This document shows, piece after piece, positions 15,121 to 56,773 of a stretch of 64,000 nucleotides of DNA; positions within the stretch are counted from its first letter, which is position 1; every line of letters begins with the position of its first letter. The notes under the pieces are model-generated. The model was not told the origin of the DNA, made no database searches, and worked only from the letters and a program-made list of their open reading frames with translations. The stretch is from NCBI GenBank assembly GCA_000991135.1, contig LBST01000006.1:46663-110662 (forward strand), read 5' to 3'. Position numbers and translations under genes: made by a program. This DNA is from Candidatus Roizmanbacteria bacterium GW2011_GWC1_37_12. GTDB taxonomy: Bacteria; Patescibacteriota; Microgenomatia; UBA1406; GWC2-37-13.

Positions 15121-15135
15121 ATCTAAAGTAAAAAA

Positions 15136-16095: not shown

Positions 16096-16099
16096 AAAT

Positions 16100-17275: not shown

Positions 17276-17276
17276 T

Positions 17277-26563: not shown

Positions 26564-26564
26564 A

Positions 26565-26729
26565 ATGAAAATTGAAATTCCTGATTTAAATCCCTTTCAA
26601 ATAATAGGTTCATTTCCACGACTATCTGTCGTAGCGGCGAGAGAACCTAGTTTATTTCTTATCCCAACCCCTATTAAATATGAGGAATTACAACAAAGGT
26701 CTAGTGAATTATTTTCCAGATATATATAA
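26565..26729 (+). CDS. N-terminal fragment (motif 1 region) of the HisRS-like protein, in a different frame from the main ORF
   Basis: The ATG lies 1 nt after the upstream stop. MKIEIPDLNP...SLFLIPTPIKYEELQQRSSELFSRYI resembles the HisRS/HisZ N-terminus and the class II motif 1 proline region. It ends at TAA 26727-29 within GATATATATAATGG. Confidence 0.5.
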   Translation: MKIEIPDLNPFQIIGSFPRLSVVAAREPSLFLIPTPIKYEELQQRSSELFSRYI

Positions 26730-27771: not shown

Positions 27772-28841
27772 TAAAAAAAGAATTGATTGAACTTAATAAA
27801 AAACTAGTACGATTTAAAACAATCTCCTCAAATAAATCCGAACTAGAAAGATGTATTAGATTTATAGAGAATTATTTTAATATCAATAATTTATTTAAAA
27901 AAATATTTTATTCTAATGGTATTCCTTCGCTCCTCGTGTCCAACTCATTATCAAAAAACCCGGATTTATTATTGAACGGCCATATAGATGTAGTGGAAGG
28001 CAATAATAATCAATTTAAGCCTTTTGTCAAAAACGATAAACTTTATGGAAGAGGGACGATCGACATGAAATCTTCAATAGCTGTGATTATGCTTATTATG
28101 AAGAAGCTTAAATCCACTAATAAAAAAATCTCGGCGATGTTTGTAAGCGATGAAGAGATTTTTGGTAAAGACGGTACAAAATATATTCTCAATAAAGGTT
28201 ATAAGCCAAAATTCACAATAATCACGGAGGAATCAAACTTTGATATCGTTATTAAACAAAAAGGCCAGTTAACTTTAAAACTTGAGGCAAAAGGAAAATC
28301 CGGTCATGGATCACAACCATGGACTGGACTAAATGCTATTGAAGAATTAATTGAAATTTATCAAAAAATAAGAAATTTATTTCCAAAAGAACAAAAAAAC
28401 ACCTGGAATATAAATTCTATTAATTTAGGAATTATTAATGGTGGAGTAGCTCCTAACGTTATTCCCTCAAAGGCAGAATTGATATTAGATATTCGTTATC
28501 CAACAAATCTAAAACTTGATTCTTTCTTAGTTAGATTTTATGGAATTTTAAGAAAATCTAGCGTTACTTATTCTTTATTGACAAAAACAAATCCCATGGA
28601 TTCTGGCAATGCTATATTCTTTATTAATAAACTCAAACCTATTGTTGAAAAACAGATTAAAAGAAAAGCTAAATTAAAATGGACAAATTACTGTAGTGAT
28701 GGTCGTTATTTTTCCGATTCAAAATTACCAGTAATTGAATTTGGTCCGACTGGAGCTAATTATCATACTGATAATGAATATGTAGATATAAACAGTCTGG
28801 TTAATTATTACGAGATTCTAAAGAGATTTATTATTTCTTAG
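27768..28841 (+). CDS. M20 family metallohydrolase (ArgE/DapE/acylase-like)
   Basis: LNGHIDVV, GRGTIDMK, VSDEE, GKSGHGSQP and NGG..PNVIP. Paralog of 49348-50430. Confidence 0.85.
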   Translation: MIKKELIELNKKLVRFKTISSNKSELERCIRFIENYFNINNLFKKIFYSNGIPSLLVSNSLSKNPDLLLNGHIDVVEGNNNQFKPFVKNDKLYGRGTIDMKSSIAVIMLIMKKLKSTNKKISAMFVSDEEIFGKDGTKYILNKGYKPKFTIITEESNFDIVIKQKGQLTLKLEAKGKSGHGSQPWTGLNAIEELIEIYQKIRNLFPKEQKNTWNINSINLGIINGGVAPNVIPSKAELILDIRYPTNLKLDSFLVRFYGILRKSSVTYSLLTKTNPMDSGNAIFFINKLKPIVEKQIKRKAKLKWTNYCSDGRYFSDSKLPVIEFGPTGANYHTDNEYVDINSLVNYYEILKRFIIS

Positions 28842-36048: not shown

Positions 36049-36978
36049 ATGCATCCCTTACAATCAAACGAATGGGAAAACGCCAGAAAAGAAGTGGGGA
36101 TAAAAACTCTTCGTTTAGATGATTTTTTATTAACTATTCATAAAATTCCATTCACAAACTTTAAAATAGGTTATCTACCAAGATCAACTATGCCGTCTAA
36201 TAGAGTTTTAAATAAACTTTATGAGTACGGAAAAAAGAACAAAGTTGTTTTTATAAAAATAGAGCCATACGAAGAAAAGTCAAAAGTCAAAAGTCAAAAG
36301 TCAAAATTACAACTTAAAAGTAAAAATTTGATAGAATCAAAACATCCTTTATTTCCTACTTGGACACAGATTTTAGATTTAAACAAAACTGAAGACGAAC
36401 TTCTTAAAAGTTTTCACTCCAAAACCCGTTATAACATTCGTCTGGCAGAAAAAAAAGGCGTAGTTGTAAAAGAAGAATCAAATGAAAAAGGATTCAAAGT
36501 CTTTGCCAAACTCTATTTCGAAACCACCAAAAGACAAAAATACTTCGGCCACGACGAAAAATATCACAAAATCGTTTGGGACAATCTAAAAAACAGCCTT
36601 TCCCATATCTTAATTGCTTATTACAACAATATTACTCTTGCTGCTTATGAACTTTGGTATCTGGACGGAATAATCTATTATGTTTATGGAGGAACATCAG
36701 AGCTCCATCGAAATTTAATGGCTTCAAACTTGCTGATGTGGGAAGCCATTAAACTAGGTAAACGTCTTGGCGCTAAAAAATTCGATATGTGGGGTTCTTT
36801 GCCTCCTGATTACGACCCAAAGCACTCATGGTCCGGCTTCACCCGCTTCAAACAGGGCTACGGAACGAAATTTGTGGAAATGGTGGGAAGTTATGACTTG
36901 GTAATCAATCCTGTTTTATATAGAATCTATAATATTATTTATGCCCTTCGTGAAATTTATTTGATGTTTAAAAGATAG
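36049..36978 (+). CDS. FemAB-family (tRNA-dependent) peptidoglycan aminoacyltransferase-like protein
   Basis: HSKTRYNIRLAEKKG, YGGTSELHRNLMASNLLMWEAIK, FDMWG and GFTRFKQGYG. Confidence 0.8.
   Translation: MHPLQSNEWENARKEVGIKTLRLDDFLLTIHKIPFTNFKIGYLPRSTMPSNRVLNKLYEYGKKNKVVFIKIEPYEEKSKVKSQKSKLQLKSKNLIESKHPLFPTWTQILDLNKTEDELLKSFHSKTRYNIRLAEKKGVVVKEESNEKGFKVFAKLYFETTKRQKYFGHDEKYHKIVWDNLKNSLSHILIAYYNNITLAAYELWYLDGIIYYVYGGTSELHRNLMASNLLMWEAIKLGKRLGAKKFDMWGSLPPDYDPKHSWSGFTRFKQGYGTKFVEMVGSYDLVINPVLYRIYNIIYALREIYLMFKR
36276..36330. repeat. In-frame GTCAAAAG-repeat insertion (KSKVKSQKSKLQLKSKN) in the femAB-like gene
   Basis: AAAGTCAAAAGTCAAAAGTCAAAAGTCAAAATT. Same repeat as 55949-55979. Confidence 0.8.
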
Positions 36979-37506
36979 ATTATTTATATCCTTATCCCAA
37001 TTTTTCGGATTGTCTTGAATATATTTACGGATTTCTGCCAATGATTCTTCATTGCGGATGACGTGGTCGTAGAATGACCGTTGCCATTTAAAGATATTTT
37101 GTCCTAATTGATGGATTAATTTTGATGAATTCATTTTGAAAAACCCAATAATTTTTGACAACAACATATTGCGTCGTTGCAACCAATCATTAAAATACGA
37201 TTTATCCTGTAGGGACAATTCATGAATTGTCCCTACAATTGGTTCATCCTGTTTAATTACAATAATTCCATGAACGTGATTAGGCATAATAATATATTCA
37301 TCAATAAATACATTTTGATAATATTTTGGTATTTCTATCCAATATTTTTCAACAATCTTTCCGTATTCACTCAATATCATTTCTCCATTAATAATCTCTC
37401 CAAACAAACATTCTCTATTTTTCGTACAGATTGTGACAAAATAATAACCAGATGAAGAATAATCGAAATGCTTTAATCTATTTGTTTTTCGGTAACGGTA
37501 AATCAT
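36916..37506 (-). CDS. Y1 (HUH) transposase-like protein, IS200/RayT family, second copy
   Basis: MPNHVHGIIV (HUH) and IRKYIQDNPKNW (Tyr helix). The 3' end overlaps the femAB-like gene by 63 nt. Confidence 0.75.
   Translation of the reverse strand: MIYRYRKTNRLKHFDYSSSGYYFVTICTKNRECLFGEIINGEMILSEYGKIVEKYWIEIPKYYQNVFIDEYIIMPNHVHGIIVIKQDEPIVGTIHELSLQDKSYFNDWLQRRNMLLSKIIGFFKMNSSKLIHQLGQNIFKWQRSFYDHVIRNEESLAEIRKYIQDNPKNWDKDINNLSFKHQINFTKGINNIIDSI
37209..37236. repeat. Perfect 28-bp palindrome GTAGGGACAATTCATGAATTGTCCCTAC (copy 1, inside the Y1 transposase-like gene)
   Basis: Identical copy at 56563-56590. Both are translated as VGTIHELSL. Confidence 0.9.
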
Positions 37507-40428: not shown

Positions 40429-41280
40429 TTATATAAAATCTTTTATCAGACTATCAAAGTCTACGAATCTTTCTTTGTTAACCAAAGTTTCTTTCTCCAG
40501 TTGAGGCAGTTGATCTGTAAAGGTAGGTCTTTTGATTTGGTAGATCACTCCTAACGGAAATTTTTCTTCGTTAATCTCAAGACTTTTTTCAACCGCTAGC
40601 TTGAAATTGTCTTTTTCAAAGTCAGCTGGGAGTTTATAGGTTTTTTGTAAATAATATTGGTATGTATTGATTTTATTAAATGTAACGCATGGCTGAAGGA
40701 TATTAATCAAAGAAAATCCTTTATGATTGACGCCCTCCTTTATCAAAGCGATTGTGCCATTAGCGTCGCCGGCAAATGCTTGAGCAACAAAAGTCGCGCC
40801 GCTCGTTATTGCCAAAGATAAAGGATTAATCGGTATTTCTATTATGCCTGAAGGCGTCGATTTTGATTTAAAACCCTTGGAAGCAGTCGGCGCGACTTGG
40901 CCTGTCGTCAAACCGTAAACGCCGTTATCATGGACAATAACAGTGATGTCATGATTGCCTCGGCAAGCGTGGATCAAATGATTTCCTCCTTCTCCATAAC
41001 AGTCGCCGTCTCCAACAATCGCAACTACCGGTAAATTATGATTGGCCAGTTTGATACCGATCGCGTTTGGAATGGCTCTGCCGTGGAGCGAATGAATGGC
41101 ATAGGCGTTTAAAAAATCATTCATGTTTCCGGAGCAGCCGATGCCAAAAACCACCGCCACGCCGGACGGGTCAAAACCAAGTTGAACAAATGCCTGCTTG
41201 ATGGCAATTCCTATCCCCCAGTCGCCGCAACCCGGACACCAAGTCGGGTTATAACCGGAGAAATCCTGAATAGTTGACAT
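40429..41280 (-). CDS. korB: 2-oxoacid:ferredoxin oxidoreductase, beta (TPP-binding) subunit
   Basis: WCPGCGD and the TPP motif GDGDCYGEGGNH. Confidence 0.9.
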   Translation of the reverse strand: MSTIQDFSGYNPTWCPGCGDWGIGIAIKQAFVQLGFDPSGVAVVFGIGCSGNMNDFLNAYAIHSLHGRAIPNAIGIKLANHNLPVVAIVGDGDCYGEGGNHLIHACRGNHDITVIVHDNGVYGLTTGQVAPTASKGFKSKSTPSGIIEIPINPLSLAITSGATFVAQAFAGDANGTIALIKEGVNHKGFSLINILQPCVTFNKINTYQYYLQKTYKLPADFEKDNFKLAVEKSLEINEEKFPLGVIYQIKRPTFTDQLPQLEKETLVNKERFVDFDSLIKDFI

Positions 41281-41308
41281 AAAAATTTCTAATTTCTAAT
41301 TGATTTAA

Positions 41309-43063
41309 TTAGGTTAATTTTCTAATAATCTCTTCAGTCCATATCGGCCTTCCGTCATATTTTAATATTTTCTCTTCAATTTCCACCCCTGTCTCCATTG
41401 CCAAAAGCTTGCCCATTTGCCCCCACGAATTATTTTCTAAAAGAATGTATCGTTTTTTTGCACTAAATAACTTTCTGATTTTGTCTTTATCTAGAGGATA
41501 GACATGGTTAAAATGAATAAAGGCAGTGTTTTCCAATGTTTTTTGGGCCTCAATAATCGACCCCTTGACAGATCCCCAGCTGACAAGGACAGTTTCTGCC
41601 TTTTCCAGATCGCCGTAGACTTTCGGCAGGGAAAAATCTTTTTCTAAATATGTTTGCCACTTTTTGTTTCTTTTATCTACCTGATCTATCCTCGGCTTCG
41701 CTTCTTCAGTCGTATGACCATCCTCGAGGTGTTCGTAGGAATTTGCCTGAAAATAGTATCCGGGAATACCGGGAATAAGTCTTTCCGATATTCCGTCTTC
41801 TGTGATTTTGTATCTTAAAAAATTTTTACTTTTAACATTTGAATTTTGAACTTGATTTGTCATTTGTAATTTGTCATTTGTAATTTCTTTAAGAAGCTTT
41901 CCTCTATTAACTTTATAGTTGGCTATAAAATCATCTACAAATTTCTTACTTACGCTCTTATGTCCTTCCGATAAAAACATGTCGCTCATAACAACCACTG
42001 GCAGCTGATAAACATCCGCCAGATTAAACGCTTTAGCGGTCAGTTCGATCATCTCTTCAACATCCCCAGGCGCTAAAACGATTTTCGGAAATTCGCCGTG
42101 GCCTGCATGAACCGTAAATAAAAGATCACTCTGTTCGGTCCAGGTCGGCATTCCGGTTGCCGGACCTGGCCTTTGTGACAAAAAAATGACAATCGGCGTT
42201 TCCGTAACTCCCGCTAAAGAAACCGCTTCAACCATCAAGGCAAAACCGCCTCCTGATGTCCCAACTGCTGACCGAACTCCGGCAAAAGACGAACCCAAGG
42301 CCGTATTAATTACCGAGATTTCATCTTCGCCATGACGGACAATCATGTTGTTTTTCTTCTGCCATGATGCCAAAGTCGTCAACACTGAACTTGACGGAGT
42401 CATCGGATAAGCGCAGTAAAACCGGCAATCGGCAACAACTGATCCTAATGAAAAAGCATCATTACCTGTCAAAACTAATTTTGTTTCTGATGTTTTTTTT
42501 GTCAACAACGGTTTAATTAATTGGAAATAGTTTTTTTTGACATAATCATATCCCTTTCTGACAAACTGCTTATTAAAATTAATTACTTCTTCTCCTTTTC
42601 TTCCGAACTGCTCTTCGATAATATGCTCTAATTCGTCAATCTCTCCTCCCAAAATCGCGAGCGTTGCTCCCAAAGCAATTGTGTTTTTCATCACCACCTG
42701 CCCTTTTTGCTCTTCCAGGATTTTCTTAAAAGGGATGTCTAATGTTTTATAGCTGCCTTTTTCCGGCACAAAATCACTTGAGTCGTAAACAACAATACTG
42801 TCGACGAGGAGGAATTTTTTATTTTGATCAAATGTTTCTTTATTTAAGCATATTAATAAGTCGACGTTATACTTCAACTGCCTTACAACTTGATCAGATA
42901 CACGGGTTTCAAAACTATTGTGTCCGCCACGAATGAGCGAAGGATATTTAATATAATCAAAGATATGATATCCTAATCTGCTGGCAATTTTGGAAAAAAC
43001 AAGGCCGGTCGTCATAATCCCAAAGCCTGCTTCTCCGCCGATTTTCCAAGTAAAATCAATCAT
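41309..43063 (-). CDS. korA: 2-oxoacid:ferredoxin oxidoreductase, fused gamma-alpha subunit
   Basis: N-terminal gamma-type GGEAGFGI, then the alpha domain (CAYPMTPSS, GGGFALM). An ATGA overlap with the sufU stop makes 43063 the likely start. Confidence 0.9.
   Translation of the reverse strand: MIDFTWKIGGEAGFGIMTTGLVFSKIASRLGYHIFDYIKYPSLIRGGHNSFETRVSDQVVRQLKYNVDLLICLNKETFDQNKKFLLVDSIVVYDSSDFVPEKGSYKTLDIPFKKILEEQKGQVVMKNTIALGATLAILGGEIDELEHIIEEQFGRKGEEVINFNKQFVRKGYDYVKKNYFQLIKPLLTKKTSETKLVLTGNDAFSLGSVVADCRFYCAYPMTPSSSVLTTLASWQKKNNMIVRHGEDEISVINTALGSSFAGVRSAVGTSGGGFALMVEAVSLAGVTETPIVIFLSQRPGPATGMPTWTEQSDLLFTVHAGHGEFPKIVLAPGDVEEMIELTAKAFNLADVYQLPVVVMSDMFLSEGHKSVSKKFVDDFIANYKVNRGKLLKEITNDKLQMTNQVQNSNVKSKNFLRYKITEDGISERLIPGIPGYYFQANSYEHLEDGHTTEEAKPRIDQVDKRNKKWQTYLEKDFSLPKVYGDLEKAETVLVSWGSVKGSIIEAQKTLENTAFIHFNHVYPLDKDKIRKLFSAKKRYILLENNSWGQMGKLLAMETGVEIEEKILKYDGRPIWTEEIIRKLT
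41818..41888. repeat. In-frame AT-rich repeat (TTGTCATTTGTAATTTGTCATTTGTAATTT) in the korA gamma-alpha linker
   Basis: Encodes ITNDKLQMTNQVQNSNVKSKN. Related intergenic copies at 46765-46795 and 3517-3540. Confidence 0.7.
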
Positions 43064-43410
43064 AATTTTTTTAGAGCTTCTAGAGGCAATAAAGCGCACT
43101 TAATTCTATTAACGCCAAGCTCAATTCCCAACATCTTAATCATAAATTCTTTGTCGAGGTTTTTCAATTCAAGTTCTGACTTATTCTTAATATATTGTGT
43201 CAGCATCGACGAGGACGCTATTGAGATGGCGCAACCTTTACCCTTGAATTTTGCCTCAACCACTTTGCCCTTGGCAATTTTTACGCAAAGCTCGACTTCG
43301 TCTCCACACAAGGGATTGGAGACTTTGGCTGTTTTAGTAGGTCGGTCAATTTTTCCAAAGTTTCGCGGGTGCTGGTAATGGTCGAGGATTAATTCGCTAT
43401 AGATACTCAT
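43060..43410 (-). CDS. sufU: SufU/IscU-type Fe-S cluster scaffold
   Basis: NPLCGDEVEL, GKGCAIS and a C-terminal conserved Cys. Confidence 0.85.
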   Translation of the reverse strand: MSIYSELILDHYQHPRNFGKIDRPTKTAKVSNPLCGDEVELCVKIAKGKVVEAKFKGKGCAISIASSSMLTQYIKNKSELELKNLDKEFMIKMLGIELGVNRIKCALLPLEALKKL

Positions 43411-43513: not shown

Positions 43514-44779
43514 TTAAGCTAATATCTTCTCCACCTTCTTTAACCCCTTAATTAACCTTTCAATATCATTTTCATCATTGTAAATATAAAAACTCGCCCT
43601 TACCGTAGCATTGACTCCCAATCTATTATGCAAAGGCATGGCGCAGTGGTGCCCAGCACGAACCGCTATTTTTTCTTCATCCAAGATAGAAGCAATATCG
43701 TGAGGATGATATTTTCCAAAACTAAAAGCGATTGCCCCTCCTCTGTCGTTCTCGTCAATGGGCCCAAATATTTTTAACCGATTGCCAAACTCGCGTCTTA
43801 ATATTTTAAGACAAAAAAGCGCTAACTTTTTTTCGTGTTCGCGAACTTTATCCATCCCAATAGTTTTTAAATACTTTATTGCTTCTTTAAACGCAATTAC
43901 CTCTCCGATTGCCGGCGTTCCCGCTTCAAACTTATGGGGCGGGTCTTTAAAAATAGTCCTGTCAATATACACCTCGTTGATCATTTCTCCGCCGTACATA
44001 AAAGGAAACATTTCTTTTAATAAATTTTCTTTTCCCCATAAGACCCCGACTCCGGTTGGCCCGAGCATCTTGTGAGAAGAAAAAACCAGGAAATCACAAC
44101 CGAGGTCTTGAACATCAACCTTAAGGTGCGGGACAGCCTGCGCTGCGTCAATAATGGTAATTATCTTAGGATTAATCTTTTTTGCCGCTGCAATAATTTC
44201 TTTGACCGGATTTATCGTCCCCAAAACATTCGAAATATAAGTCAGAGTTAAGATTTTAGTTTTTTCTGTTACTATTTTTTTTAATATTTGATATGTATTT
44301 TTAATATTTGATTTTTTATATTTGATATCGTCCAATTCTAAATCTAAATATCCTTTATCATTGATGTCAATTACCTTGAAACTAGCGCCTACTTCCAAAC
44401 ACAATACCTGCCAAGGAACAAAATTCGAATGATGTTCCATAATCGTTGTTACTATCTCATCATCCTTATCAACTATCTCCCGACCCAAAGAATAAGCAAT
44501 CAAATTTAATGATTCAGTCGTATTTCTCGTAAAAACTATTTCTGCGTCTTTGCGCGCGTTTATAAAATCCGCGACTATCTTTCGGGTTTCTTCATACTCT
44601 TCTGTTGCTTTCTCGGAAATCTTATAGACGCCGCGAAAGATATTGGCCGAATATTGTGAATAATATTCAACCAATTTGTCAATGACTGACTTTGGTTTCA
44701 AAGAAGTGGCGGTCGAATCAAGATATGTCAGTTTTGGGTTGTTATTGAAAATCGGAAAATCCTTCTTTAATTTGTTCAT
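43514..44779 (-). CDS. sufS: Cysteine desulfurase SufS (class V aminotransferase)
   Basis: SSHKMLGPTG (PLP lysine) and RAGHHCAMP (active Cys loop). The start at 44779 (MNKLKKDFPIF) is preferred; the upstream extension is repeat-derived. Confidence 0.9.
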   Translation of the reverse strand: MNKLKKDFPIFNNNPKLTYLDSTATSLKPKSVIDKLVEYYSQYSANIFRGVYKISEKATEEYEETRKIVADFINARKDAEIVFTRNTTESLNLIAYSLGREIVDKDDEIVTTIMEHHSNFVPWQVLCLEVGASFKVIDINDKGYLDLELDDIKYKKSNIKNTYQILKKIVTEKTKILTLTYISNVLGTINPVKEIIAAAKKINPKIITIIDAAQAVPHLKVDVQDLGCDFLVFSSHKMLGPTGVGVLWGKENLLKEMFPFMYGGEMINEVYIDRTIFKDPPHKFEAGTPAIGEVIAFKEAIKYLKTIGMDKVREHEKKLALFCLKILRREFGNRLKIFGPIDENDRGGAIAFSFGKYHPHDIASILDEEKIAVRAGHHCAMPLHNRLGVNATVRASFYIYNDENDIERLIKGLKKVEKILA

Positions 44780-44792
44780 TTTGTAACACGAC

Positions 44793-44834
44793 GTCATTCT
44801 GGCAAGGCCGCCTTAGGCGGCCGCGTCCAGAATC
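44793..44834. repeat. GTCATTCTGG...CCAGAATC palindromic unit (type 1)
   Basis: GTCATTCTGGCAAGGCCGCCTTAGGCGGCCGCGTCCAGAATC with an inner GGCCGCC/GGCGGCC hairpin. Confidence 0.9.
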
Positions 44835-46045: not shown

Positions 46046-46233
46046 GATTCTGGAGTCGTCCCGATTAATCGGGACTCCCCAGAATGACATAAACATCTGA
46101 TTCTGGAGTCAGCGCCTATCGGCGCTTCCCCAGAATGACAAAAAAACTTAGGTCATTCTGGCAAGTGAACGAAGTGAACGCGTCCAGAATCGTTGTTGGC
46201 AGATTCTGGAGTCGTTTTACTCCCCAAAATGAC
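46046..46233. repeat. Array of four palindromic units of the GTCATTCTGG/CCAGAATGAC family
   Basis: U1 46046-88, U2 46099-139, U3 46152-91, U4 46202-33. The outer arms are conserved and the inner segments differ. In U1 and U2 the inner segment is itself a hairpin. Confidence 0.9.
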
Positions 46234-49347: not shown

Positions 49348-50430
49348 CTATGTTATTATGAATTCTTCAAGTATTTTATAGTAAAGAGAGAGACTTTTGA
49401 TATCTATCCACTCATTTTTCTGATGCATGCCGCCGCCTTCTAAACCAAAGTGAACTGCGGGGATTTTTTTTATGCTGTAAAAACGGCCATCCGTTGCGTA
49501 ATGATCTTTTGTGAATAAGTCTTTTTCTTTATTATATCTTTTCAGTATCTGTGCTAACTTTTTTACTTCCGGAACAGTTCTGTCAGTTTCAAGCCCGGGC
49601 TCGTTCATTTTTACTTTGATCTCTGCTTGGGGAAAATATTTTTTTATTTTACTGATAATTTTTTCTGGCTGATCTTGGTATATTCTCCGTATGTCAAAAG
49701 TAGCTTCGGCATGATCGGAAATGACATTAAAGGCTGTGCCGCCATTGATAAGATTAAGACTATATGTTGTTGCCCAAATTTCCCTTTTAGGGAGCGGGTT
49801 CTCTGTATAAAATCGACTGATATCGCTTGCCATTTTGACATTTGCATTTTTACCATCCCAGGGACGAGAACCGTGAGCAGACTTTCCTCTATGCGTAACC
49901 GTTATTTTAAGAATACCCTTATGAGCCATTAATATCTTTAAGTTGGTTGGTTCTCCACCCAGAAAAAGACGTGTTTTGGCCTCTTTTTTTTCAGAAAAAA
50001 TTTTCGTTCCGGAAAAACCACCGATTTCTTCATCAGTGACTAACGTGAGCCCCACATCATCAGGTAGTTTGTTTTTTTCGCTAAGATTTCTGAATAACTC
50101 TATTATTGCAGCAGCTGCTCCTTTCATATCATAGACTCCTCGACCAAACGCTTTATCTCCCTTTATTTTTAGTTTAAACGCTTCTCGCAAAGCGGGGACG
50201 ACATCAAGATGCGCATTCAAGAGAATCCGAAAGGGCTTGTTAACTAAATGATTTTTTCCGTAAATCAGTAGACTCGAGAAACCATTATTAATATATCTTT
50301 TAATGAGCAAGTTTTTATTATTCAGATAGCCGGCAACGTAATTGATGATCTTACCGCCTTCTTTTTTATCGCTGGATACAGACTTAAATTCAACCAATTT
50401 TTCTAAAAGTGCTAAAATATTTTTTTCCAT
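49348..50430 (-). CDS. M20 family metallohydrolase (ArgE/DapE/N-acyl-amino-acid deacylase-like)
   Basis: LNAHLDVV, GRGVYDMK, VTDEE, GKSAHGSRP and NGG..FNVI. The ATG at 50430 is preferred to the TTG at 50442. Confidence 0.85.
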   Translation of the reverse strand: MEKNILALLEKLVEFKSVSSDKKEGGKIINYVAGYLNNKNLLIKRYINNGFSSLLIYGKNHLVNKPFRILLNAHLDVVPALREAFKLKIKGDKAFGRGVYDMKGAAAAIIELFRNLSEKNKLPDDVGLTLVTDEEIGGFSGTKIFSEKKEAKTRLFLGGEPTNLKILMAHKGILKITVTHRGKSAHGSRPWDGKNANVKMASDISRFYTENPLPKREIWATTYSLNLINGGTAFNVISDHAEATFDIRRIYQDQPEKIISKIKKYFPQAEIKVKMNEPGLETDRTVPEVKKLAQILKRYNKEKDLFTKDHYATDGRFYSIKKIPAVHFGLEGGGMHQKNEWIDIKSLSLYYKILEEFIIT

Positions 50431-50458
50431 AGTTATTAACAAAAGTTACGCAGTAAAC

Positions 50459-50541
50459 GTCATTCTGGCAAGGCCGGAGGCCGCGTCCAGAATCTGCACA
50501 ACGATTCTGGAGTCGCTCGTTACCTCGCTCCCCAGAATGAC
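50459..50541. repeat. Composite GTCATTCTGG...CCAGAATGAC repeat (type 1 plus type 2 units)
   Basis: GTCATTCTGGCAAGGCCGGAGGCCGCGTCCAGAATC-TGCACAAC-GATTCTGGAGTCGCTCGTTACCTCGCTCCCCAGAATGAC. Confidence 0.9.
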
Positions 50542-50561
50542 AAAGTGCGTAAGTCCTGTTA

Positions 50562-51668
50562 TTAAGCAACCGTAATTTTAAAAACGGTATATTTATTTAG
50601 TTTTGCCTCGTCTATTTTGAATAGACTATCAGTTTTAGCTACATCAATTGTGCCATTTTTTTCCGGAATTTCTTTTTGTAAAATGTCATCGGCAAAGTAC
50701 CATTTAGTTAGACAGATGTCATTTGCATACTTAAAATTAGAGAGAGTAGAAATATGACAATTTAAAAGTTGACCCCAACCGGATTCAATCATGCCGCCGC
50801 ACCACACAGGAATATTGTTTTGAGCGGCCAACTCTGATATAAGTTTTGCTTGCCAATAGCCGCCGACTCGCTGGGGCTTGATATTTATTATTTTGCACGC
50901 GCCAATTTTGATCGCCTGCTCGGCGATATGATAATTACCGATGCTTTCGTCCAGGCAGATCGGTGTTTTTATCTGTTTTTGTAAAATTGAATGGTCAACA
51001 ATGTCATTATAGGTTAACGGTTGTTCAATCATTAAAAGATTCATTTTATCTAATTCTTTGAAAACTTTTATATCTTTTAATCTATAGGCAGAATTAGCAT
51101 CGACAAAAAGCGGTAGATCTGGGTAATCCTTTCTTATTGCGGCGATGAGTTTTAGGTCTATTCCCGGCTTTATCTTAACCTTAGCTCTTTCAGGCGAATA
51201 CGTTTTAAGATAGCGCAAAACTCTGCTTATTGAATCTTTAAGATCAACCCCAAGTCCTATACTGATAGCCGCCGCTATCTTCGTTTTAGTTCCGCCCCAA
51301 AGTTTTCTTAATGGCTTACCTGTTTGTTGTGATTTTAAATGCCAAAAAGCCGATTCAATCACGGTTTTGCTAAAATTATTTCCCCGCATCAATTTATAAA
51401 TGGCTTCTAACTCTTCAATCGTGTTTATTTTTTTATTCAAAATTGCCGGAACAAGATAGGTCTTTAAGAGATGAATGGTGCCATCGTTAAAATCTGGTTC
51501 GTAAAATGGAAAATCAAAATTTGCAGACTCTCCTATCCCGATTAAGCCGTTTTTATCAAAAAGCTTGATTAAAATGATTTCGCGGTTGGTCATTGAAGTG
51601 AAACTGACACGAAAGGGTTCTTTAAGAGGAAGGTATATCTTGTAAATCTCGGCTTTTGTAATGTGCAT
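50562..51668 (-). CDS. Enolase-superfamily enzyme of the o-succinylbenzoate synthase / N-acylamino-acid racemase group
   Basis: KxK AKVKIKPG; metal ligands VDANSAY, MIEQPL and LDES; second base NIKPQRVGG. Confidence 0.85.
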   Translation of the reverse strand: MHITKAEIYKIYLPLKEPFRVSFTSMTNREIILIKLFDKNGLIGIGESANFDFPFYEPDFNDGTIHLLKTYLVPAILNKKINTIEELEAIYKLMRGNNFSKTVIESAFWHLKSQQTGKPLRKLWGGTKTKIAAAISIGLGVDLKDSISRVLRYLKTYSPERAKVKIKPGIDLKLIAAIRKDYPDLPLFVDANSAYRLKDIKVFKELDKMNLLMIEQPLTYNDIVDHSILQKQIKTPICLDESIGNYHIAEQAIKIGACKIINIKPQRVGGYWQAKLISELAAQNNIPVWCGGMIESGWGQLLNCHISTLSNFKYANDICLTKWYFADDILQKEIPEKNGTIDVAKTDSLFKIDEAKLNKYTVFKITVA

Positions 51669-51676
51669 ACAATTAA

Positions 51677-52609
51677 TTATAGCGCTTCCTTTAAACAATC
51701 AGTGTTATTTTCACTAAAATTTTTTACAGTAACTATATAATGACGCATTTCACCTTTTTCATCAGGCAAGGCAACATAATCAACTGCGGTATGACTCTGA
51801 TTCTCAAATAACTCCGTAAAAACTATTCTGTGCTGTTCTGACCAAAGTAGAGCTTCGTCACCCCATAGATCCTTAACAACCGACGGGTTTACCGAGGTTT
51901 CGACAAAAGCGAGTTGGGACGGTGGATTTACATGAGTTAGACATCTGCCTTCTCTGACTTCTTCTGGGTCAAAAAGGAAAACGTCATCAGGATGATTCTC
52001 CATATATTTAGTATAATCTTGTTGTCCAGGATAAACTGCTCCTTTAACCCAGGCACTACCAGGTTTAGCCTTGTAATAAAATCGGTCTGACGGCATATCT
52101 CTATGTTCATTTCCCCCTTCCTTTTCTATTCCTTCAAAAAAATCCCGTTTATATTCATTTGAGTGCATCCTGCTTTTGTGGAGATATAAATTGACATTTC
52201 TTGCAACAAAAGGGTCTGAAGTAAGTGCGAGAGTCTCAATAAACGGAGAGAGCTTATTTTCTATTAGACCGTAGTTTACCTTCATTAATTCGTATCCAAG
52301 ACCAAGTCTCTGATACTCTTCGTCCACGCCAAGTTGGTGAAGGAACAAATAAAGAGCACCTTCTGGAGGTATTTTGATAATACCGATCGAGGCGCCCATC
52401 ATTCTGTCTCCGTCAAAAATACCGTGACATGTCCCTATATTATCCTCTGTTAATGCGGCATAGTCCCAAAGTTTGTTTATTTCTGGTAAACCCCAAGCGC
52501 TTTGAGCGACTCTTGTCCAGCTGTCACGATCCCCAGAAGTTAGGGGACGCTTGATAGCTCTTGCTAAAATTTCAGCTCTCTGTGTTTCTATTCTTGCTGC
52601 GATTGCCAT
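51677..52609 (-). CDS. GNAT-family N-acyltransferase with an unassigned C-terminal domain
   Basis: LHQLGVDEEYQRLGLGYELM is a classic GNAT motif A (Q/R-x-x-G-x-G/A). The C-terminal half (about 150 aa) has no recognised family. Confidence 0.65.
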   Translation of the reverse strand: MAIAARIETQRAEILARAIKRPLTSGDRDSWTRVAQSAWGLPEINKLWDYAALTEDNIGTCHGIFDGDRMMGASIGIIKIPPEGALYLFLHQLGVDEEYQRLGLGYELMKVNYGLIENKLSPFIETLALTSDPFVARNVNLYLHKSRMHSNEYKRDFFEGIEKEGGNEHRDMPSDRFYYKAKPGSAWVKGAVYPGQQDYTKYMENHPDDVFLFDPEEVREGRCLTHVNPPSQLAFVETSVNPSVVKDLWGDEALLWSEQHRIVFTELFENQSHTAVDYVALPDEKGEMRHYIVTVKNFSENNTDCLKEAL

Positions 52610-52630
52610 AATATAATTTTAATTAATAAT

Positions 52631-54385
52631 TTATAACCCGCCTTCTCCTGCCAACCTCATCTTTTGCAATACTTCTTCCGTCTCTTGATCAAGATTACCT
52701 TCTTCAAGCCTTTTGAGTCCTTGACAGATTATCCTCGTTAAAAATTCATGCGTCTCGCTGAATTCTGTTAGAGAACGCTGATCTCTCAATATCCCCGAGG
52801 CTTTTCCAAGCAATATTCCATATTGCAGGTACAGAAAGTTTTGAGCCCTAACCGTATCTTCAACAATCCAAGCGCGATTCATACCTTTTCCCCGTAATCT
52901 ATCTGCCATACCATATTCTTCTGCAATTTCTCTTATTCTTTGACCATCGCGCTCTACTTTGGCTTGAAATTCTTCATTCTGTACCATATGGGCAATAACC
53001 AAAGCTTGTAAATGCGGCCCGTAATTAGTCGGCGTTGACAGATGACTCATACCAGTTGTTGAATCGTCTATATGAGCAGGAATCAATGCAAAGGCATAAG
53101 GATCTATTGCTGCGGCTTTCGCATTCGTAATGATAAGATGCTGATAGTCGGCAAGTGTTCTCGTGGGTCCTTCACCAAAATAACTTCCGCCAACGCTTCC
53201 GGTTGTTTGCATACAATCGGCAATGATCGGCAATTCATGAGGTTCAAAAAGATTTCGGACTTCTGTAAGTAATGCTTGATCTACTGGGTACATACCCCCA
53301 TCCACGTCGACATCAGGCTCTATGATAAGACCCGCACATTCGCCTCTTTTAATCGCCTCTGAAAGAGTTGTAAGGATTTTTTCCCTATTTTCAGCCGTAA
53401 ATATCGGAAGGACGCGTTTTACCCAAGCTTCACCGCCCGTATGTAAATTGCTGTGTCCATCAACACCCCAAGCGGATCCTTCTGTTGCCGCTCCACCATA
53501 ACCTCCGGCCCATGTACCGTCAACCGCAAAAACCTTAGGAACGGTAATAAGACCTCGTAATTCCAACTGTTTAATTCCATTTGCCCCTTTTAAATTATAT
53601 TTTTTTAGCAGTCTGGAAACTTCCGGACTTTCATATGTATGTTGTCTCTCGGCTGCATGAGCACAGACGATCTCAATTGCTGTCGAGTTGATTTCTGACC
53701 CAGAGTGACGCGTATGTATCCTTATTTCTTGGTTTTCAACCTGTTTGGTATTTGGATGGAGTTTTGCCAACTCATCCATAGCATATCCTTGGACTTCGGC
53801 TGGGTGGTAGTGATGCATTGGATGACCGCTTGTCTGCATCAAACTGTCTGCTGTTTTCATGATGAGCGGATAAGGATTGCCGAATCCGAGTCTGCCTGTT
53901 GCGGCCGACGTAGCTAAATCATGGATGATATCATCACCAAAATTACCATTACCAGCCATTGCTACTTTTTTCAACCCTCCGCTTTGCGTGCTGTTTAAAA
54001 TATTACCCGCCATCCAAAGGACAGAAGTTTTGTGAGATAGTTTTTTTATTTCATCAAGTCGTCTTTTCATTGGTCCATTGACTGCAGATACACGCATTAA
54101 ATTTGGGCGACCATTATTCCGAAGTGTTCTTTTTGCTAAAACATTGGATAGCAAAAGGTCGGTAAGAAATGCACTTTCCATCTGTTCAAGTTCTGCCGAA
54201 ATGATTTGCTGTTGACCTTCGCCAAAAGTTAGACGGCCTCCTGTATAGCATCTAAGACCATCCATTACCGATATTATGGCGTCAAGACCGACTCTTTGAA
54301 GCATATCCCATTCAGGTTTCCTGGGATCTCCTTCAGGAAGACTTCTGACATCAATGTTTATTTTATGAATTTTTTTTTCATGCAT
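52631..54385 (-). CDS. Divergent class-III aminotransferase-like PLP enzyme
   Basis: RHSGSEINSTAIEI (compare SGSEANE.AIK), GLIIEPDVDVDGGM (compare IIEPVQGEGG), IIADCMQTTGSVGG (compare DEVQTGFGRTG) and a candidate Schiff-base Lys in ITNAKAAA. Confidence 0.6.
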   Translation of the reverse strand: MHEKKIHKINIDVRSLPEGDPRKPEWDMLQRVGLDAIISVMDGLRCYTGGRLTFGEGQQQIISAELEQMESAFLTDLLLSNVLAKRTLRNNGRPNLMRVSAVNGPMKRRLDEIKKLSHKTSVLWMAGNILNSTQSGGLKKVAMAGNGNFGDDIIHDLATSAATGRLGFGNPYPLIMKTADSLMQTSGHPMHHYHPAEVQGYAMDELAKLHPNTKQVENQEIRIHTRHSGSEINSTAIEIVCAHAAERQHTYESPEVSRLLKKYNLKGANGIKQLELRGLITVPKVFAVDGTWAGGYGGAATEGSAWGVDGHSNLHTGGEAWVKRVLPIFTAENREKILTTLSEAIKRGECAGLIIEPDVDVDGGMYPVDQALLTEVRNLFEPHELPIIADCMQTTGSVGGSYFGEGPTRTLADYQHLIITNAKAAAIDPYAFALIPAHIDDSTTGMSHLSTPTNYGPHLQALVIAHMVQNEEFQAKVERDGQRIREIAEEYGMADRLRGKGMNRAWIVEDTVRAQNFLYLQYGILLGKASGILRDQRSLTEFSETHEFLTRIICQGLKRLEEGNLDQETEEVLQKMRLAGEGGL

Positions 54386-54418
54386 AGTAATACCATCATT
54401 TTTTTAATATCAAGTGAG

Positions 54419-54447
54419 ATTGTAACAAATTTTTTTTGGCCTGTCAA
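54419..54447 (-). promoter_or_regulatory. Near-consensus promoter TTGACA-17-TACAAT for the aminotransferase-GNAT-racemase-M20 operon
   Basis: On the minus strand, TTGACA = 54442-47 and TACAAT = 54419-24, with a 17-nt spacer. It lies about 33 nt upstream of the ATG at 54385. Confidence 0.6.
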
Positions 54448-54478: not shown

Positions 54479-55633
54479 TCACAAATTTAGCCTTGGAATT
54501 CGGTCTAATTCATCAATGTCTTTGACAAATAATTCTTTTTCAGCCTTATATGAGGCAGCGGCACCGATCATGGCAGCGTTATCGCCTGTCAGATATTTGT
54601 AAGTTGGAAATAAAACTTCTCCACGATGTCTATCAACTAATTTTCTGAATAATTGGCGAAGCCGAAGATTGGCGATCACTCCACCGCCGATGACCAATCG
54701 ATTAATTCCAGTCTGCCTCATCGCTTTCTCTGTCTTTTTTATAATCGTGTCAAAGACCGCTTCCTGAAACGATGAACACAGTCTTCGTAAATCATCGGTC
54801 ATTCTGGGGAGCGTAGCCGAGTCAGACTCGGCGAATGCGACTCCAGAATCGTTGTGCAGATTCTGGACGCGGCCTTCGGCCTTGCCAGAATGACGTCGGG
54901 TCACAAAATAATAAAATGACGTTTTCAAGCCGGAAAAAGAAAAATTCAGGTCGTTGCTTTTTAACATCGGTCTAGGAAAAATATAAAAATCCTTGTTATG
55001 AACATCTCTTGCCAATCTTTCAATCACCGGACCACCCGGATAACCTAGTCCGAGAAGTTTGGCGACTTTATCCAAGGCTTCGCCGGCAGCATCATCAAGA
55101 GTTGAACCAATAACATTGTATTTCAAATGGTCGTTGAATTTGACAAACTCTGTATGTCCTCCAGAAATAATAAGAGCCAAATAAGGAAATTTGAAATTTA
55201 TTTTCGGATTACCTTGGCTGTTTTGCACAAACGCCGAATAGATGTGGCCTTCAAGGTGATTAACAGCAATCAATCTTTTGTTATATTTTTTTGCCAATTC
55301 TTTGGCTTTTTTAATGCCGACCTCAAGAGCTACTGCTAAACCCGGACCCTGGGTGATAGCGATTGCTTGAATCGTTGTCATTCTGGCTTGTCCAGAATCT
55401 AACAACGATTCTGGGTGCGCGAACTTCGTTCGCTTACCAGAATGACGCAGCGCTTCATCAACAACAAAATCTATTCTCTCCTCATGCGCCCGCTTGGCCA
55501 GCGATGGTACCACCCCTCCCCATTTTTTATGAATCAAAACCTGCGAATAGATGACATTGGATAAAACCCGGCGACCGTCAACAACTGCCGCAGCGGTTTC
55601 ATCGCAGGAAGTATCTATGGCAAGAATTTTCAT
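54479..55633 (-). CDS. tsaD: tRNA N6-adenosine threonylcarbamoyltransferase TsaD, carrying two in-frame repeat insertions
   Basis: ILAIDTSCDETAAAV, NHLEGH, SGGHTE, DDAAGEALDKVAKLLGLGYPGGP, GGGVIAN. The start at 55633 (MKIL) is preferred. Confidence 0.9.
   Translation of the reverse strand: MKILAIDTSCDETAAAVVDGRRVLSNVIYSQVLIHKKWGGVVPSLAKRAHEERIDFVVDEALRHSGKRTKFAHPESLLDSGQARMTTIQAIAITQGPGLAVALEVGIKKAKELAKKYNKRLIAVNHLEGHIYSAFVQNSQGNPKINFKFPYLALIISGGHTEFVKFNDHLKYNVIGSTLDDAAGEALDKVAKLLGLGYPGGPVIERLARDVHNKDFYIFPRPMLKSNDLNFSFSGLKTSFYYFVTRRHSGKAEGRVQNLHNDSGVAFAESDSATLPRMTDDLRRLCSSFQEAVFDTIIKKTEKAMRQTGINRLVIGGGVIANLRLRQLFRKLVDRHRGEVLFPTYKYLTGDNAAMIGAAASYKAEKELFVKDIDELDRIPRLNL
54798..54894. repeat. 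Composite GTCATTCTGG...CCAGAATGAC repeat inserted in frame in tsaD
   Basis: 97 bp with the same architecture as 50459-50541 in the opposite orientation. Translated as RHSGKAEGRVQNLHNDSGVAFAESDSATLPRMT. Confidence 0.9.
55377..55446. repeat. Second, shorter composite repeat of the same family in frame in tsaD
   Basis: GTCATTCTGGCTTGTCCAGAATC-TAACAAC-GATTCTGGGTGCGCGAACTTCGTTCGCTTACCAGAATGAC. Translated as RHSGKRTKFAHPESLLDSGQARMT. Confidence 0.9.
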
Positions 55634-55637
55634 GAAA

Positions 55638-55741
55638 CAATTTCTAATTTCTAATTGACCTAAAGAATATCCAAATCCCAATTGGGAAACAATTGGTCAT
55701 TATTTAGATTAATTAGAATAATTAGGTTAATTAGGTCAATT
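55638..55741. repeat. AT-rich palindromic repeat, TTTCTAATTTCTAATT family (copy B)
   Basis: Aligns with 23376-23493. Its right end contains the stop codon of tsaC-tsaE. Confidence 0.85.
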
Positions 55742-56773
55742 TTTGATAATTACCTCTCTTTTCTTTTCGCTTAAGTATCTCATCTTCACGTATACTATTT
55801 TCCCTTTACTTTTAAGCAGTTCTATTATCTCTCTTGCCTTTTCTCCCCACTCAAAACACAAAATATTTCCCGGCTTTAATAATCTCTCTATTCCTAAATC
55901 TTTAAACTCCTCTCTCTCTTCAATGTTATAAAGATCAAGATGAATAAATTTTGACTTTTGACTTTTGACTTTTGACTTTCCTATTCCGTATTCATAATAG
56001 ATTACAAAAGTCGGGGAAATGATGTTTTTTATTCCGAGGGTTTCTCCAAGTCCTTTAACAAAAATTGTTTTGCCAACTCCTAATTCACCTTCGATTATGA
56101 AAATCAATGGCTTTATTACGGACAGGTCGCGACCTGTCCCTACATTTTTTAAAATATCTTTTGCAATCTTTTTCGTTTCTTCGGGTGATTTGGAAATAAA
56201 TTTTTCTTTTCTTAAAAAATTAAAACTTCCTTTCCTCAAAATTTTTACTTCAGATTGTGTCAGATCAATAACTGTTGACGGTTTATTTCTCGGAAGTTTT
56301 CCGGCATCAACAATCAGATCAATTAATTTCTTTTTGCTCCCCGAAAGTTTTGATAATAGAGTTTTTACAGAATAATGCGGCGGATTGTTTGAAAGATTCG
56401 CAGAAGTAGCCGTCACTGGCTTCCCAAATCTTTTTACCAATACTTTGATGTGTCGATACATCGGAATTCTTACTCCCAATGTTCCTTTTTCTGATTCTAA
56501 TAAACGATCTGTCCTATGTTTAGAATTCAAAACAACGGTAAAAGGTCCTGGTAAAAGACTGCGTAGGGACAATTCATGAATTGTCCCTACAAGTACAATG
56601 TCTTTCATCATTTCAAAATCGGAAACAAAGACAGAGATTGCCTCATTGGTCGCATCAACCAACAATCCGTAAACAGTATCAGACGGAAAAACCACCAACC
56701 CTCCTAGTTTAAGAGTTTTTAAAGTAGAATTTATTACTTTATTGTGATTATGTGATATTTTTAGTATCTTCAT
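55736..56773 (-). CDS. Fusion of TsaC/YrdC (threonylcarbamoyl-AMP synthase) and TsaE (P-loop ATPase), with two in-frame repeat insertions
   Basis: The N-terminal part has GGLVVFPSDTVYGL, LLPGPFTVVL, SANLS and STVIDLT. The C-terminal part has EGELGVGKTIFVKGL, SPTFVI, HLDLY and FEWGE. Confidence 0.8.
   Translation of the reverse strand: MKILKISHNHNKVINSTLKTLKLGGLVVFPSDTVYGLLVDATNEAISVFVSDFEMMKDIVLVGTIHELSLRSLLPGPFTVVLNSKHRTDRLLESEKGTLGVRIPMYRHIKVLVKRFGKPVTATSANLSNNPPHYSVKTLLSKLSGSKKKLIDLIVDAGKLPRNKPSTVIDLTQSEVKILRKGSFNFLRKEKFISKSPEETKKIAKDILKNVGTGRDLSVIKPLIFIIEGELGVGKTIFVKGLGETLGIKNIISPTFVIYYEYGIGKSKVKSQKSKFIHLDLYNIEEREEFKDLGIERLLKPGNILCFEWGEKAREIIELLKSKGKIVYVKMRYLSEKKREVIIKN
55949..55979. repeat. 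In-frame GTCAAAAG-repeat insertion (KSKVKSQKSK) in the TsaE part
   Basis: TTTTGACTTTTGACTTTTGACTTTTGACTTT on the plus strand. Confidence 0.85.
56563..56590. repeat. Perfect 28-bp palindrome GTAGGGACAATTCATGAATTGTCCCTAC (copy 2, inside the TsaC part)
   Basis: Identical to 37209-37236. Translated as VGTIHELSL. Confidence 0.9.

Follow-up and report, generated by a model that had tools for sequence, protein, structure and literature searches.

In the 64,000-nt stretch of Candidatus Roizmanbacteria bacterium GW2011_GWC1_37_12 analysed here (contig LBST01000006.1; hereafter the window), four co-oriented open reading frames (ORFs) lie on the minus strand between positions 49348 and 54447. An earlier reading of the letters of this stretch (the original prediction) had described them as an operon of an aminotransferase-like protein, a GNAT, an enolase-superfamily racemase and an M20 deacylase; it placed all four ORFs correctly, and each of them matched a domain family. 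The first gene encodes an aminotransferase-like (AT-like) class-III pyridoxal 5'-phosphate (PLP) enzyme of 584 aa (52631-54385, minus strand, as are the following), the second a two-domain GNAT-like protein of 310 aa (51677-52609), the third an enolase of the N-succinylamino acid racemase (NSAR)/o-succinylbenzoate synthase (OSBS) subfamily (50562-51668, 368 aa from ATG) and the fourth an M20 metallohydrolase of the ArgE/DapE type (49348-50430, 360 aa from ATG). The enolase ORF as listed covers 50562-51698 and begins at an alternative TTG at 51698; the ATG at 51668 is the likely true start, as PDB homologues align from residue 1. Similarly, the M20 ORF as listed covers 49348-50442 with an alternative TTG at 50442, and its likely ATG start at 50430 is also the start in the L011 annotation. 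The Pfam families proposed for the four proteins were all matched (PF00202, PF00583 marginally, PF13378 with PF02746, and PF01546), and every motif quoted for the AT-like protein, the GNAT and the enolase was located in the sequences. As described below, the gene set is conserved in related bacteria and may represent a variant of the Geobacillus acylate-racemise-deacylate route that is extended by a transaminase.

The four genes most likely form one transcription unit, as judged from the tight 21- and 8-nt gaps, the 1-nt NSAR-M20 gap in the related locus L001 and the prediction of no terminator-like site within the unit. The spacings along the unit are 21, 8, 119 and 18 nt, and an Rfam search of the region matched no RNA family. 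A σ70-type promoter-like site (TTGACA-17 nt-TACAAT, with a TGn extended −10) occupies 54419-54447 on the minus strand, 33 nt upstream of the AT-like ATG and inside the 93-nt TsaD/AT-like spacer. This site had been called the best promoter in the window. It is indeed near-consensus, extended and well placed, with a score of 11/12 that reflects the consensus match only, and among the 7 σ70-like sites of the window that score at least 11/12, only the one at 54447-54419 joins a 17-nt spacing and a TG extension to an intergenic position before a gene. However, it is not the best match to the consensus, since a perfect 12/12 site (TTGACA-17-TATAAT) exists at 22157-22129 (minus strand), where it straddles the start of the plus-strand gene 22151-23371. 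The AT-like and GNAT-like genes had also been described as more GC-rich than their surroundings. This is true in numbers (0.429 and 0.407, against a mean of 0.365 with a standard deviation of 0.051 for 33 other genes) but not anomalous, as their GC content at third codon positions (GC3) is at the gene mean (z about -0.05 and -0.2); TsaD (GC 0.426) and FtsH (0.410) are comparably GC-rich. The higher GC content of the two genes stems from amino-acid composition, and the average GC3 therefore gives no sign of a foreign origin, so that horizontal transfer was rejected. A functional link to the downstream Rrf2-suf genes was also set aside, because the relatives do not share this adjacency and it looks incidental.

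The AT-like protein is, by its sequence, an orphan and divergent class-III (fold-type I) PLP enzyme. It matches PF00202 over residues 156-515 (47.8 bits, gathering score 30.5), while none of the NCBIfam subfamilies (ArgD, AstC, GabT, BioA, EctB, OAT and others) was reached; all of the 19 NCBIfam matches are far under their cutoffs, the best scoring 29.7 bits against a cutoff of 372. The motifs IIEPDVDVDGG, IIADCMQTTG and TNAKAAA are at residues 354, 387 and 420, and no cofactor-binding position of the class-III enzymes is missing: GFGNP (167), SGSE (228), W292, E356, D390, Q393, K423, T451 and R534. The PLP-binding lysine on which the original prediction hinged is present as K423, which aligns with the Schiff-base lysine of the acetylornithine aminotransferases and is invariant in the family. 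D390 (the pyridine-nitrogen aspartate) and Q393 align with the Asp and Gln of the DExQ motif in the same enzymes, and R534 with their C-terminal arginine, while S228/G229 align with them in a low-scoring stretch only and T451 was assigned by motif comparison. In an alignment of 8 family sequences, with members as little as 31% identical, K423, D390, Q393, SGSE (S228, G229), E356/P357, T451 and R534 are all invariant. In addition, an extra helical region spans residues about 20-116 at the N-terminus, an insertion lies at about 245-283, and three motifs are substituted, with GFGNP for GHxHP, GTWAGG for FHGRT and DVDGG for QGEGG.

When the AT-like family profile was compared with the PDB, all 11 matches were acetylornithine, succinylornithine or succinyl-diaminopimelate (succinyl-DAP) aminotransferases of the ArgD/AstC type. 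The structure model is weak (pLDDT 61.7), and Foldseek returned PDB matches with TM scores of 0.3-0.4 in which aminotransferases and class-III racemases are mixed at equal ranks. This ranking, along with the orphan status, the three substitutions and the extra N-terminal domain, would suit an enzyme that is not a transaminase but a racemase or epimerase of the α-amino-ε-caprolactam racemase or isoleucine 2-epimerase type, a decarboxylating transaminase or a lyase. We consider such an activity improbable, because the sequence-profile matches are all aminotransferases, the structure model is too poor (pLDDT and TM as above), a second racemase beside the NSAR would be redundant, and class I/II aminotransferase-fold enzymes are found in the same slot of related loci, for which a shared transaminase role is the simplest explanation.

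The second protein is recognizable as a GNAT over its N-terminal half only. PF00583 is matched marginally (21.4 against a cutoff of 20.7) at residues 53-110 only, and an NCBIfam scan of the protein gave no matches, while the acyl-CoA motif Q100-R-L-G-L-G105 is intact (YQRLGLG at 99). The profile found GNATs in the PDB over residues about 13-130 only, including 1mk4 at E 1.7e-8, and a broader family profile had no PDB match past residue about 130. Likewise, Foldseek matched GNATs on the N-terminal half only, with a probability of 1.0 over about 100-145 residues, in a weak model (pLDDT 62.5) whose most conserved stretch, 121-181, is below 50. For the C-terminal half (about 180-310), no relative was detected in Pfam, NCBIfam or the PDB. 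The CoA motif and the confinement of the GNAT match to the N-terminal half agree with the earlier description of a GNAT with an extra C-terminal domain. The family has its own motifs, LTSDPF (129) and PSDRFYY (173), and H91, D132-P133 and D175-R176 are invariant in a broader alignment of 24 sequences.

Both families are very rare. Among 5.8 billion proteins, the AT-like family forms 9 clusters and the GNAT-like family 6; an exhaustive profile search added a few more, with about a dozen further 50%-identity representatives for the AT-like family. The exhaustive GNAT-like profile also contained the fused AT domain of the protein P0006 (see below) and consequently returned both families, which occur in Roizmanbacteria and other Patescibacteria assemblies. 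It also assigned the GNAT-like protein to a larger family that has no name of its own and carries the JGI label 'predicted GNAT superfamily acetyltransferase'. Functional transfer from this wider family was ruled out, as a distant member has no NSAR or M20 neighbours. A literature search on COG3375 found nothing, and the Lysinibacillus NSAR/OSBS locus (L016) has no comparable GNAT adjacent to it, its 347-aa neighbour being unrelated.

The enolase has the two-domain fold of its superfamily (PF02746 and PF13378) and, as had been claimed, all the catalytic residues. K163/K165, D190, E215, D240 and K264 were located and aligned to 1wuf and 2zc8, and the motifs KVKIKPG, VDAN, IEQP, LDES and NIKPQR begin at 163, 189, 214, 239 and 262. 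The best PDB matches, 1wuf, 2zc8, 1wue, 1r0m and 1sja (E 1e-73 to 1e-63), are the NSAR/OSBS enzymes of Listeria and Enterococcus and the N-acylamino acid racemases of Thermus, Deinococcus and Amycolatopsis. R267 in NIKPQR (262-267), three residues past the catalytic lysine, is the equivalent of R266 in AmyNSAR, a second-shell arginine that the NSAR/OSBS subfamily conserves regardless of biological function and that other OSBS subfamilies lack (PMC12006748). These matches, the R266-equivalent arginine and the lack of men genes in the window and the 12 related loci place the protein within the NSAR/OSBS subfamily rather than in another MenC subfamily, a point on which the original prediction could have failed. 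Orthologues with 50-89% identity are widespread in the Candidate Phyla Radiation (CPR).

The subfamily, which belongs to the MLE subgroup of the enolase superfamily, contains both activities, and the enolase could in principle be a true OSBS for menaquinone with unrelated neighbours. It exceeds the cutoff of TIGR01928 (283.9 against 200.65 bits), a model that bears the NCBI name o-succinylbenzoate synthase; its relatives are publicly annotated as OSBS, and a quinol-oxidase operon lies near the L001 and L004 loci. However, TIGR01928 spans the whole promiscuous NSAR/OSBS subfamily, whose members are assigned a biological function by their genome context (PMC12006748), and the neighbours of the gene are here always GNAT-like, M20 and AT genes. 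A search for MenA-F/H homologues gave none among the window ORFs of at least 130 aa, in the L011-annotated region or in the fetched CPR loci. In the same way, no men-family Pfam match was found among the 53 ORFs and genes of the window (ORFs of at least 130 aa, with the L011-annotated region included), nor were men genes present in any of the 12 related loci. A MenC function was rejected on this gene context and seems to us barely credible; the absence of men genes and the GNAT-like, M20 and AT neighbours favour NSAR as the probable biological function.

The fourth gene encodes an M20 hydrolase, as had been assigned, with matches to PF01546 (98.5 bits) and to the dimerisation domain PF07687 (69 bits). 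The motifs AHLD, YDMKG, DEEIGG, GGEPT, SAHGS and GMHQ were located, and most of them align with 2rb7, the best PDB match; we take each to supply the metal ligand or catalytic glutamate expected from its place in the family. The protein did not reach the cutoff of the ArgE/DapE subfamily model TIGR01910 (175.8 against 217.6 bits) and was well below the cutoffs of all the DapE and ArgE equivalog models. It is 55% identical to its orthologue in L001, 30-37% identical to the M20 proteins of L002, L014, L015 and L018, and 33.5% identical to an M20 paralogue elsewhere in the window.

Conservation of the neighbourhood, on which the operon claim could be judged, is evident in the relatives. GNAT, NSAR/OSBS and M20 genes occur together in the window and also in L001, L002, L014, L015 and L018, and homologues of the GNAT-like gene adjoin NSAR genes in L006, L014, L015, L018 and L002. 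L001 contains a divergent decarboxylase gene, a GAF protein gene, a 998-aa AT-like::GNAT-like fusion (P0006), NSAR and M20. In L002, the AT-like gene is accompanied by a 359-aa GNAT-like homologue, a second NSAR/OSBS paralogue, M20, the NSAR orthologue and a decarboxylase, and L006 consists of a divergent histidine-decarboxylase-like gene, AT, GNAT-like and NSAR. The Saccharimonadales loci L014 and L015 contain a GNAT-like homologue, an NSAR orthologue, M20, a class I/II aminotransferase and a PLP decarboxylase, and L018 contains the first four of these. In these three loci, the NSAR orthologues are 59-63% identical to the enolase, and the homology of the GNAT-like proteins is supported by an hhalign probability of 96% and, for L018, by BLASTP (E 6e-43). 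The class I/II aminotransferases that replace the AT-like protein have weak best matches that are DapL-, DapC- or HisC-like and include LL-DAP and succinyl-DAP aminotransferases.

The case for transamination as part of the pathway is made most strongly by the replacement of the aminotransferase. Because the four activities stay together while unrelated families supply the aminotransferase, transamination would be one of the steps. Thus, the synteny, the fusion of the AT-like and GNAT-like proteins in P0006 and the presence of a class I/II aminotransferase in the same slot of three other CPR loci support the proposal that the four genes serve one uncharacterised pathway.

A PLP decarboxylase of about 370-400 aa recurs at these loci (L001 5762-6964, minus; L002 14308-15441, plus; L004 4875-6077, minus; L006 2331-3434, minus). 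In L001/L004, L002 and L006 it scores as a histidine decarboxylase at the equivalog level (NF002748, 468-489 bits against 305), and no homologue of it was found in the 64-kb window. The metagenomic contigs L001 (888-7976) and L004 (1-7089) share 99.2% DNA identity until just before the AT-like start codon and are unrelated beyond it; their AT-like alleles are 56% identical, one being fused to the GNAT-like protein (998 aa) and the other, of 653 aa, ending near the contig end. This breakpoint reflects either a cassette-like module replacement or an assembly chimera. A distant AT-like clade (about 32% identity) was also found in L003 (4114-10425), L005, L008 and one JGI contig. L003, L005 and L008 contain an unknown 522-aa protein, a second NSAR/OSBS paralogue (TIGR01928, 233 bits), a VanX-like M15 dipeptidase, the AT and an unknown 248-aa protein, and the loci of this clade adjoin type-IV-secretion-like genes (PrgI, TraC-like and VirB4-like).

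The closest known system is the irreversible D-to-L route of Geobacillus kaustophilus, in which a GNAT succinyl-CoA:D-amino acid N-succinyltransferase, an NSAR/OSBS enzyme and an M20 L-desuccinylase act together. In other species, the context of the operon has led to the inference of such a route (bioRxiv 10.1101/2022.03.03.481873; PMC8762209 cites Sakai et al. 2006, Biochemistry 45:4455, as the original source). The CPR operon resembles this route in having the same three enzyme superfamilies in one operon, in the NSAR/OSBS-subfamily enolase with the same catalytic residues and R266, and in what would be the same logic of acylation, racemisation and deacylation. In contrast to the Geobacillus operon, it has a fourth, integral PLP aminotransferase gene, which is fused in one lineage and of another class elsewhere; its acyltransferase comes from a two-domain GNAT-like family of about 290-360 aa that is uncharacterised and has invariant H, D-P and D-R motifs of its own; its M20 protein is below the ArgE/DapE subfamily cutoff; and a PLP decarboxylase is a frequent neighbour. 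Furthermore, its host is a CPR bacterium, and its acyl donor is probably not succinyl-CoA. From these comparisons, we give about an even chance to the reading that the operon encodes a variant of the Geobacillus route to which a transaminase has been added.

In such a variant, the GNAT-like protein would N-acylate an amino acid from acyl-CoA, the enolase would use two-lysine, Mg-stabilised enolate chemistry to invert the N-acyl amino acid at its α-carbon, the ArgE/DapE-like M20 enzyme would deacylate one enantiomer, and the PLP enzyme would transaminate the amino acid or the N-acyl intermediate. Overall, a D-amino acid would be converted to its L-form and the amino group then passed to a 2-oxo acid. 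A 2-oxoacid:ferredoxin oxidoreductase pair is encoded in the window at 40429-43099. Given this enzyme, acetyl-CoA is a more probable acyl donor than succinyl-CoA, and the carbon skeleton could be fed to the oxidoreductase, which would also regenerate the acyl-CoA. In the relatives, the histidine-type decarboxylase may serve as an alternative outlet. The benefit to an anaerobic, auxotrophic CPR cell would be a redox-neutral use of D-amino acids that needs no D-amino-acid oxidase or dehydrogenase. While the gene set, the active-site residues, the family placements, the synteny, the fusion and the aminotransferase replacement were seen in the genes themselves, we infer the step order, direction, acyl donor and substrate from them.

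Several points weigh against an extended Geobacillus route. The GNAT-like protein appears to belong to a distinct, uncharacterised two-domain family, and the distant member of its wider family has neither NSAR nor M20 adjacent. M20 is likewise not adjacent to the operon in L006, and the M20 protein of the window operon shares only about 30% identity with those of L014 and L015. The nearest characterised relatives of the AT-like protein (ArgD/AstC) transaminate the distal group of N-acylated substrates, and class-III enzymes include racemases, from which the weak structure model gives no separation. In addition, the supply of succinyl-CoA in a CPR cell is doubtful, and hydrophobic N-succinyl amino acids are the preferred substrates of characterised NSAR/OSBS enzymes (PMC12006748).

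The relationship to ArgD and DapC suggests another arrangement, in which the acyl group would be a protecting group as in arginine and DAP synthesis. The class-III enzyme would then act, in the manner of ArgD, AstC and DapC, as a transaminase on a distal oxo or amino group of the acylated compound, the NSAR would epimerise the acylated α-carbon and the M20 enzyme would deprotect. The substrate would be an amino acid of the diamino or dicarboxylic type, for example diaminopimelate, ornithine, lysine or diaminobutyrate. The 11 PDB profile matches of the AT-like family are all N-acyl-substrate aminotransferases, and ArgD/AstC/DapC are the only PDB families found by this profile, with which the protein shares the class-III fold, the PLP lysine, the aspartate, the glutamine and the C-terminal arginine. 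In P0006, aminotransferase and acyltransferase are joined in a single protein; the M20 enzyme is ArgE/DapE-like, its best family matches being ArgE/DapE; a GNAT acyltransferase is present as in the case of ArgA; and the replacing class I/II enzymes have the weak LL-DAP and succinyl-DAP aminotransferase matches described above. The transamination of N-succinyl-DAP falls to ArgD, a class III enzyme, in E. coli and to DapC, a class I enzyme, in actinobacteria, and the swap between classes III and I in the CPR loci parallels that of ArgD and DapC. With the PLP decarboxylase, a recurrent neighbour, the five activities would mirror DapD, DapC, DapE, DapF and LysA.

Nevertheless, we hold a protected-intermediate pathway of this kind to be rather unlikely. 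The similarity to ArgD is remote (48 bits), with scores of at most 30 bits against subfamily cutoffs above 370, and the AT-like protein differs from these enzymes in its N-terminal extension, its insertion and the lack of the substrate-carboxylate arginine of FHGRT, which is replaced (GTWAGG). No genes for a kinase and reductase of the ArgB/C type or for DapA/B are present in the operon or in any of the loci, while the operon has a racemase that neither pathway uses. The decarboxylase of L001, L002 and L006 scores as a histidine decarboxylase and not as a DAP, ornithine or lysine decarboxylase. Moreover, a DAP route requires the M20 enzyme to deacylate a D-centre, for which we know of no precedent in the M20 family. 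In a more specific form of the same idea, the CPR set of GNAT-like protein, ArgD/DapC-like aminotransferase (of class III or class I/II), NSAR, DapE-like M20 and PLP decarboxylase would stand in non-orthologously for the lower DAP/lysine pathway, or serve as its salvage version, and the enolase racemase would act on an N-acyl-diaminopimelate-type intermediate in the place of DapF. We regard it as very improbable; were it true, an epibiotic CPR cell could make or recycle host-derived cell-wall diamino acids.

The same enzymes could also run in the opposite direction to make a D-amino acid for peptidoglycan or another product. A 2-oxo acid would be aminated to the L-amino acid by the aminotransferase, acylated by the GNAT-like protein, converted to the N-acyl-D form by the NSAR and released by the M20 enzyme. 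The NSAR reaction is reversible, the position of the aminotransferase as the first gene of the operon suits a biosynthetic entry step, and the organism makes peptidoglycan, as indicated by a class A PBP, a MurJ fragment, a FemAB-like protein and YceG in the window. Characterised M20 enzymes of the ArgE, DapE and aminoacylase types are L-specific, whereas D-aminoacylases belong to another superfamily, and the M20 enzyme would here have to act on an N-acyl-D substrate. The decarboxylase and the VanX-like D-Ala-D-Ala dipeptidase associated with related loci also suggest breakdown, so that we assign the biosynthetic direction a low probability.

An acylate-then-racemise use of a D-amino acid is also known from the DgcN-DgcA system of D-glutamate catabolism, in which D-Glu is N-acetylated and then acted on by an N-acetyl-D-Glu racemase (PMC10845958). 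That racemase also belongs to the enolase superfamily; in contrast, the operon enolase scores 93 bits against a cutoff of 400 for the DgcA model, and the GNAT-like protein is without any NCBIfam match.

As to the substrate of the proposed D-to-L route, the hints point in different directions. Histidine is suggested by the neighbour that scores as a histidine decarboxylase in the relatives and by the histidine ammonia-lyase encoded in the window (547.9 against 539.15 bits). An N-acylated diamino acid, or the oxo form of one, is suggested by the ArgD/AstC-related aminotransferase, the ArgE/DapE-like M20 enzyme and the weak DapL/DapC/HisC-like matches of the class I/II replacements, and D-amino-acid peptides of the cell wall by the VanX-like M15 dipeptidase and the second NSAR/OSBS paralogue in related loci.

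A palindrome had also been noted at 50459-50541, between the racemase and M20 genes, and it is real: its arms (50459-50468 and 50532-50541) are 100% complementary, and the whole 119-nt NSAR-M20 spacer folds at -51 kcal/mol (z = -5.4). It belongs to a copy of a dispersed modular palindromic repeat (50445-50560; no strand assigned) that fills the spacer and is built of GTCATTCTGG, a GC hairpin, TCCAGAATC...GATTCTGGA, a GC hairpin and CCAGAATGAC; the last of these has 16 matches in the window with at most one mismatch, against 2.65 expected. Because the NSAR-M20 gap is only 1 nt in L001, the repeat looks like an insertion into the operon junction. Other copies are found at 46065-46175 and 44760-44830, and one copy overlaps the 3' end of sufD. 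Two copies (54785-54910 and 55360-55460) are in frame within the essential tsaD gene (54479-55681, minus strand), where they encode segments such as 'HPESLLDSGQARMTT' and 'SGVAFAESDSATLPRMTDD' and recall the Rickettsia palindromic elements.

Elsewhere in the window, a second amino-acid-type operon of overlapping or abutting genes (24090-28841, plus strand) encodes the histidine ammonia-lyase HutH mentioned above, a ThrC-like PALP enzyme (172 against 167 bits), a 363-aa protein with a weak HisRS-like match and the M20 paralogue; no urocanase or HutI was seen with it. A co-oriented run at 13813-18872 (plus strand) could be a further amino-acid-related cluster, as it encodes a 435-aa PALP enzyme, an unknown 319-aa protein, a DAO-family FAD oxidoreductase (404 aa; PF01266, 156 bits) and an unknown 531-aa protein. 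Two unusual fusions were observed: a class-Ib aminoacyl-tRNA synthetase of the Trp/Tyr type with an N-terminal YbaK-like tRNA_edit domain (19306-20775, plus strand), and a Sua5/YrdC-TsaE protein encoded directly upstream of tsaD (55736-56773, minus strand). Homologues of IS200-like Y1 transposases (PF01797) are encoded at 5880-6545 (plus strand) and 36916-37506 (minus strand).

The core combination of GNAT, NSAR and M20 is already known in kind, and the overall logic of the operon is not surprising. What is new is the integral aminotransferase, which in one lineage forms a fusion with the acyltransferase and in others is replaced non-orthologously, together with the orphan class-III family, the two-domain GNAT-like family, itself uncharacterised, the association with a decarboxylase and the conservation of the set across the CPR. 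In a literature search pairing the CPR with OSBS or N-acylamino-acid racemase, the top-ranked results contained neither enzyme term. For the enzyme families, the orphan class-III PLP family gains a Rosetta-stone fusion to an acyltransferase, the two-domain GNAT family is defined with clear invariant residues, and the operon offers a natural case, favoured by its context, for NSAR as the biological activity within the promiscuous NSAR/OSBS subfamily. All four proteins are of soluble-enzyme types, so direct expression and assay are possible. CPR bacteria (Patescibacteria) have very few recognisable amino-acid pathways, and this four- to five-gene module is kept in several CPR orders; it thus counts among the few metabolic investments that they conserve, and it probably bears on how these epibionts use compounds from the host or the environment, such as D-amino acids, cell-wall fragments and histidine.

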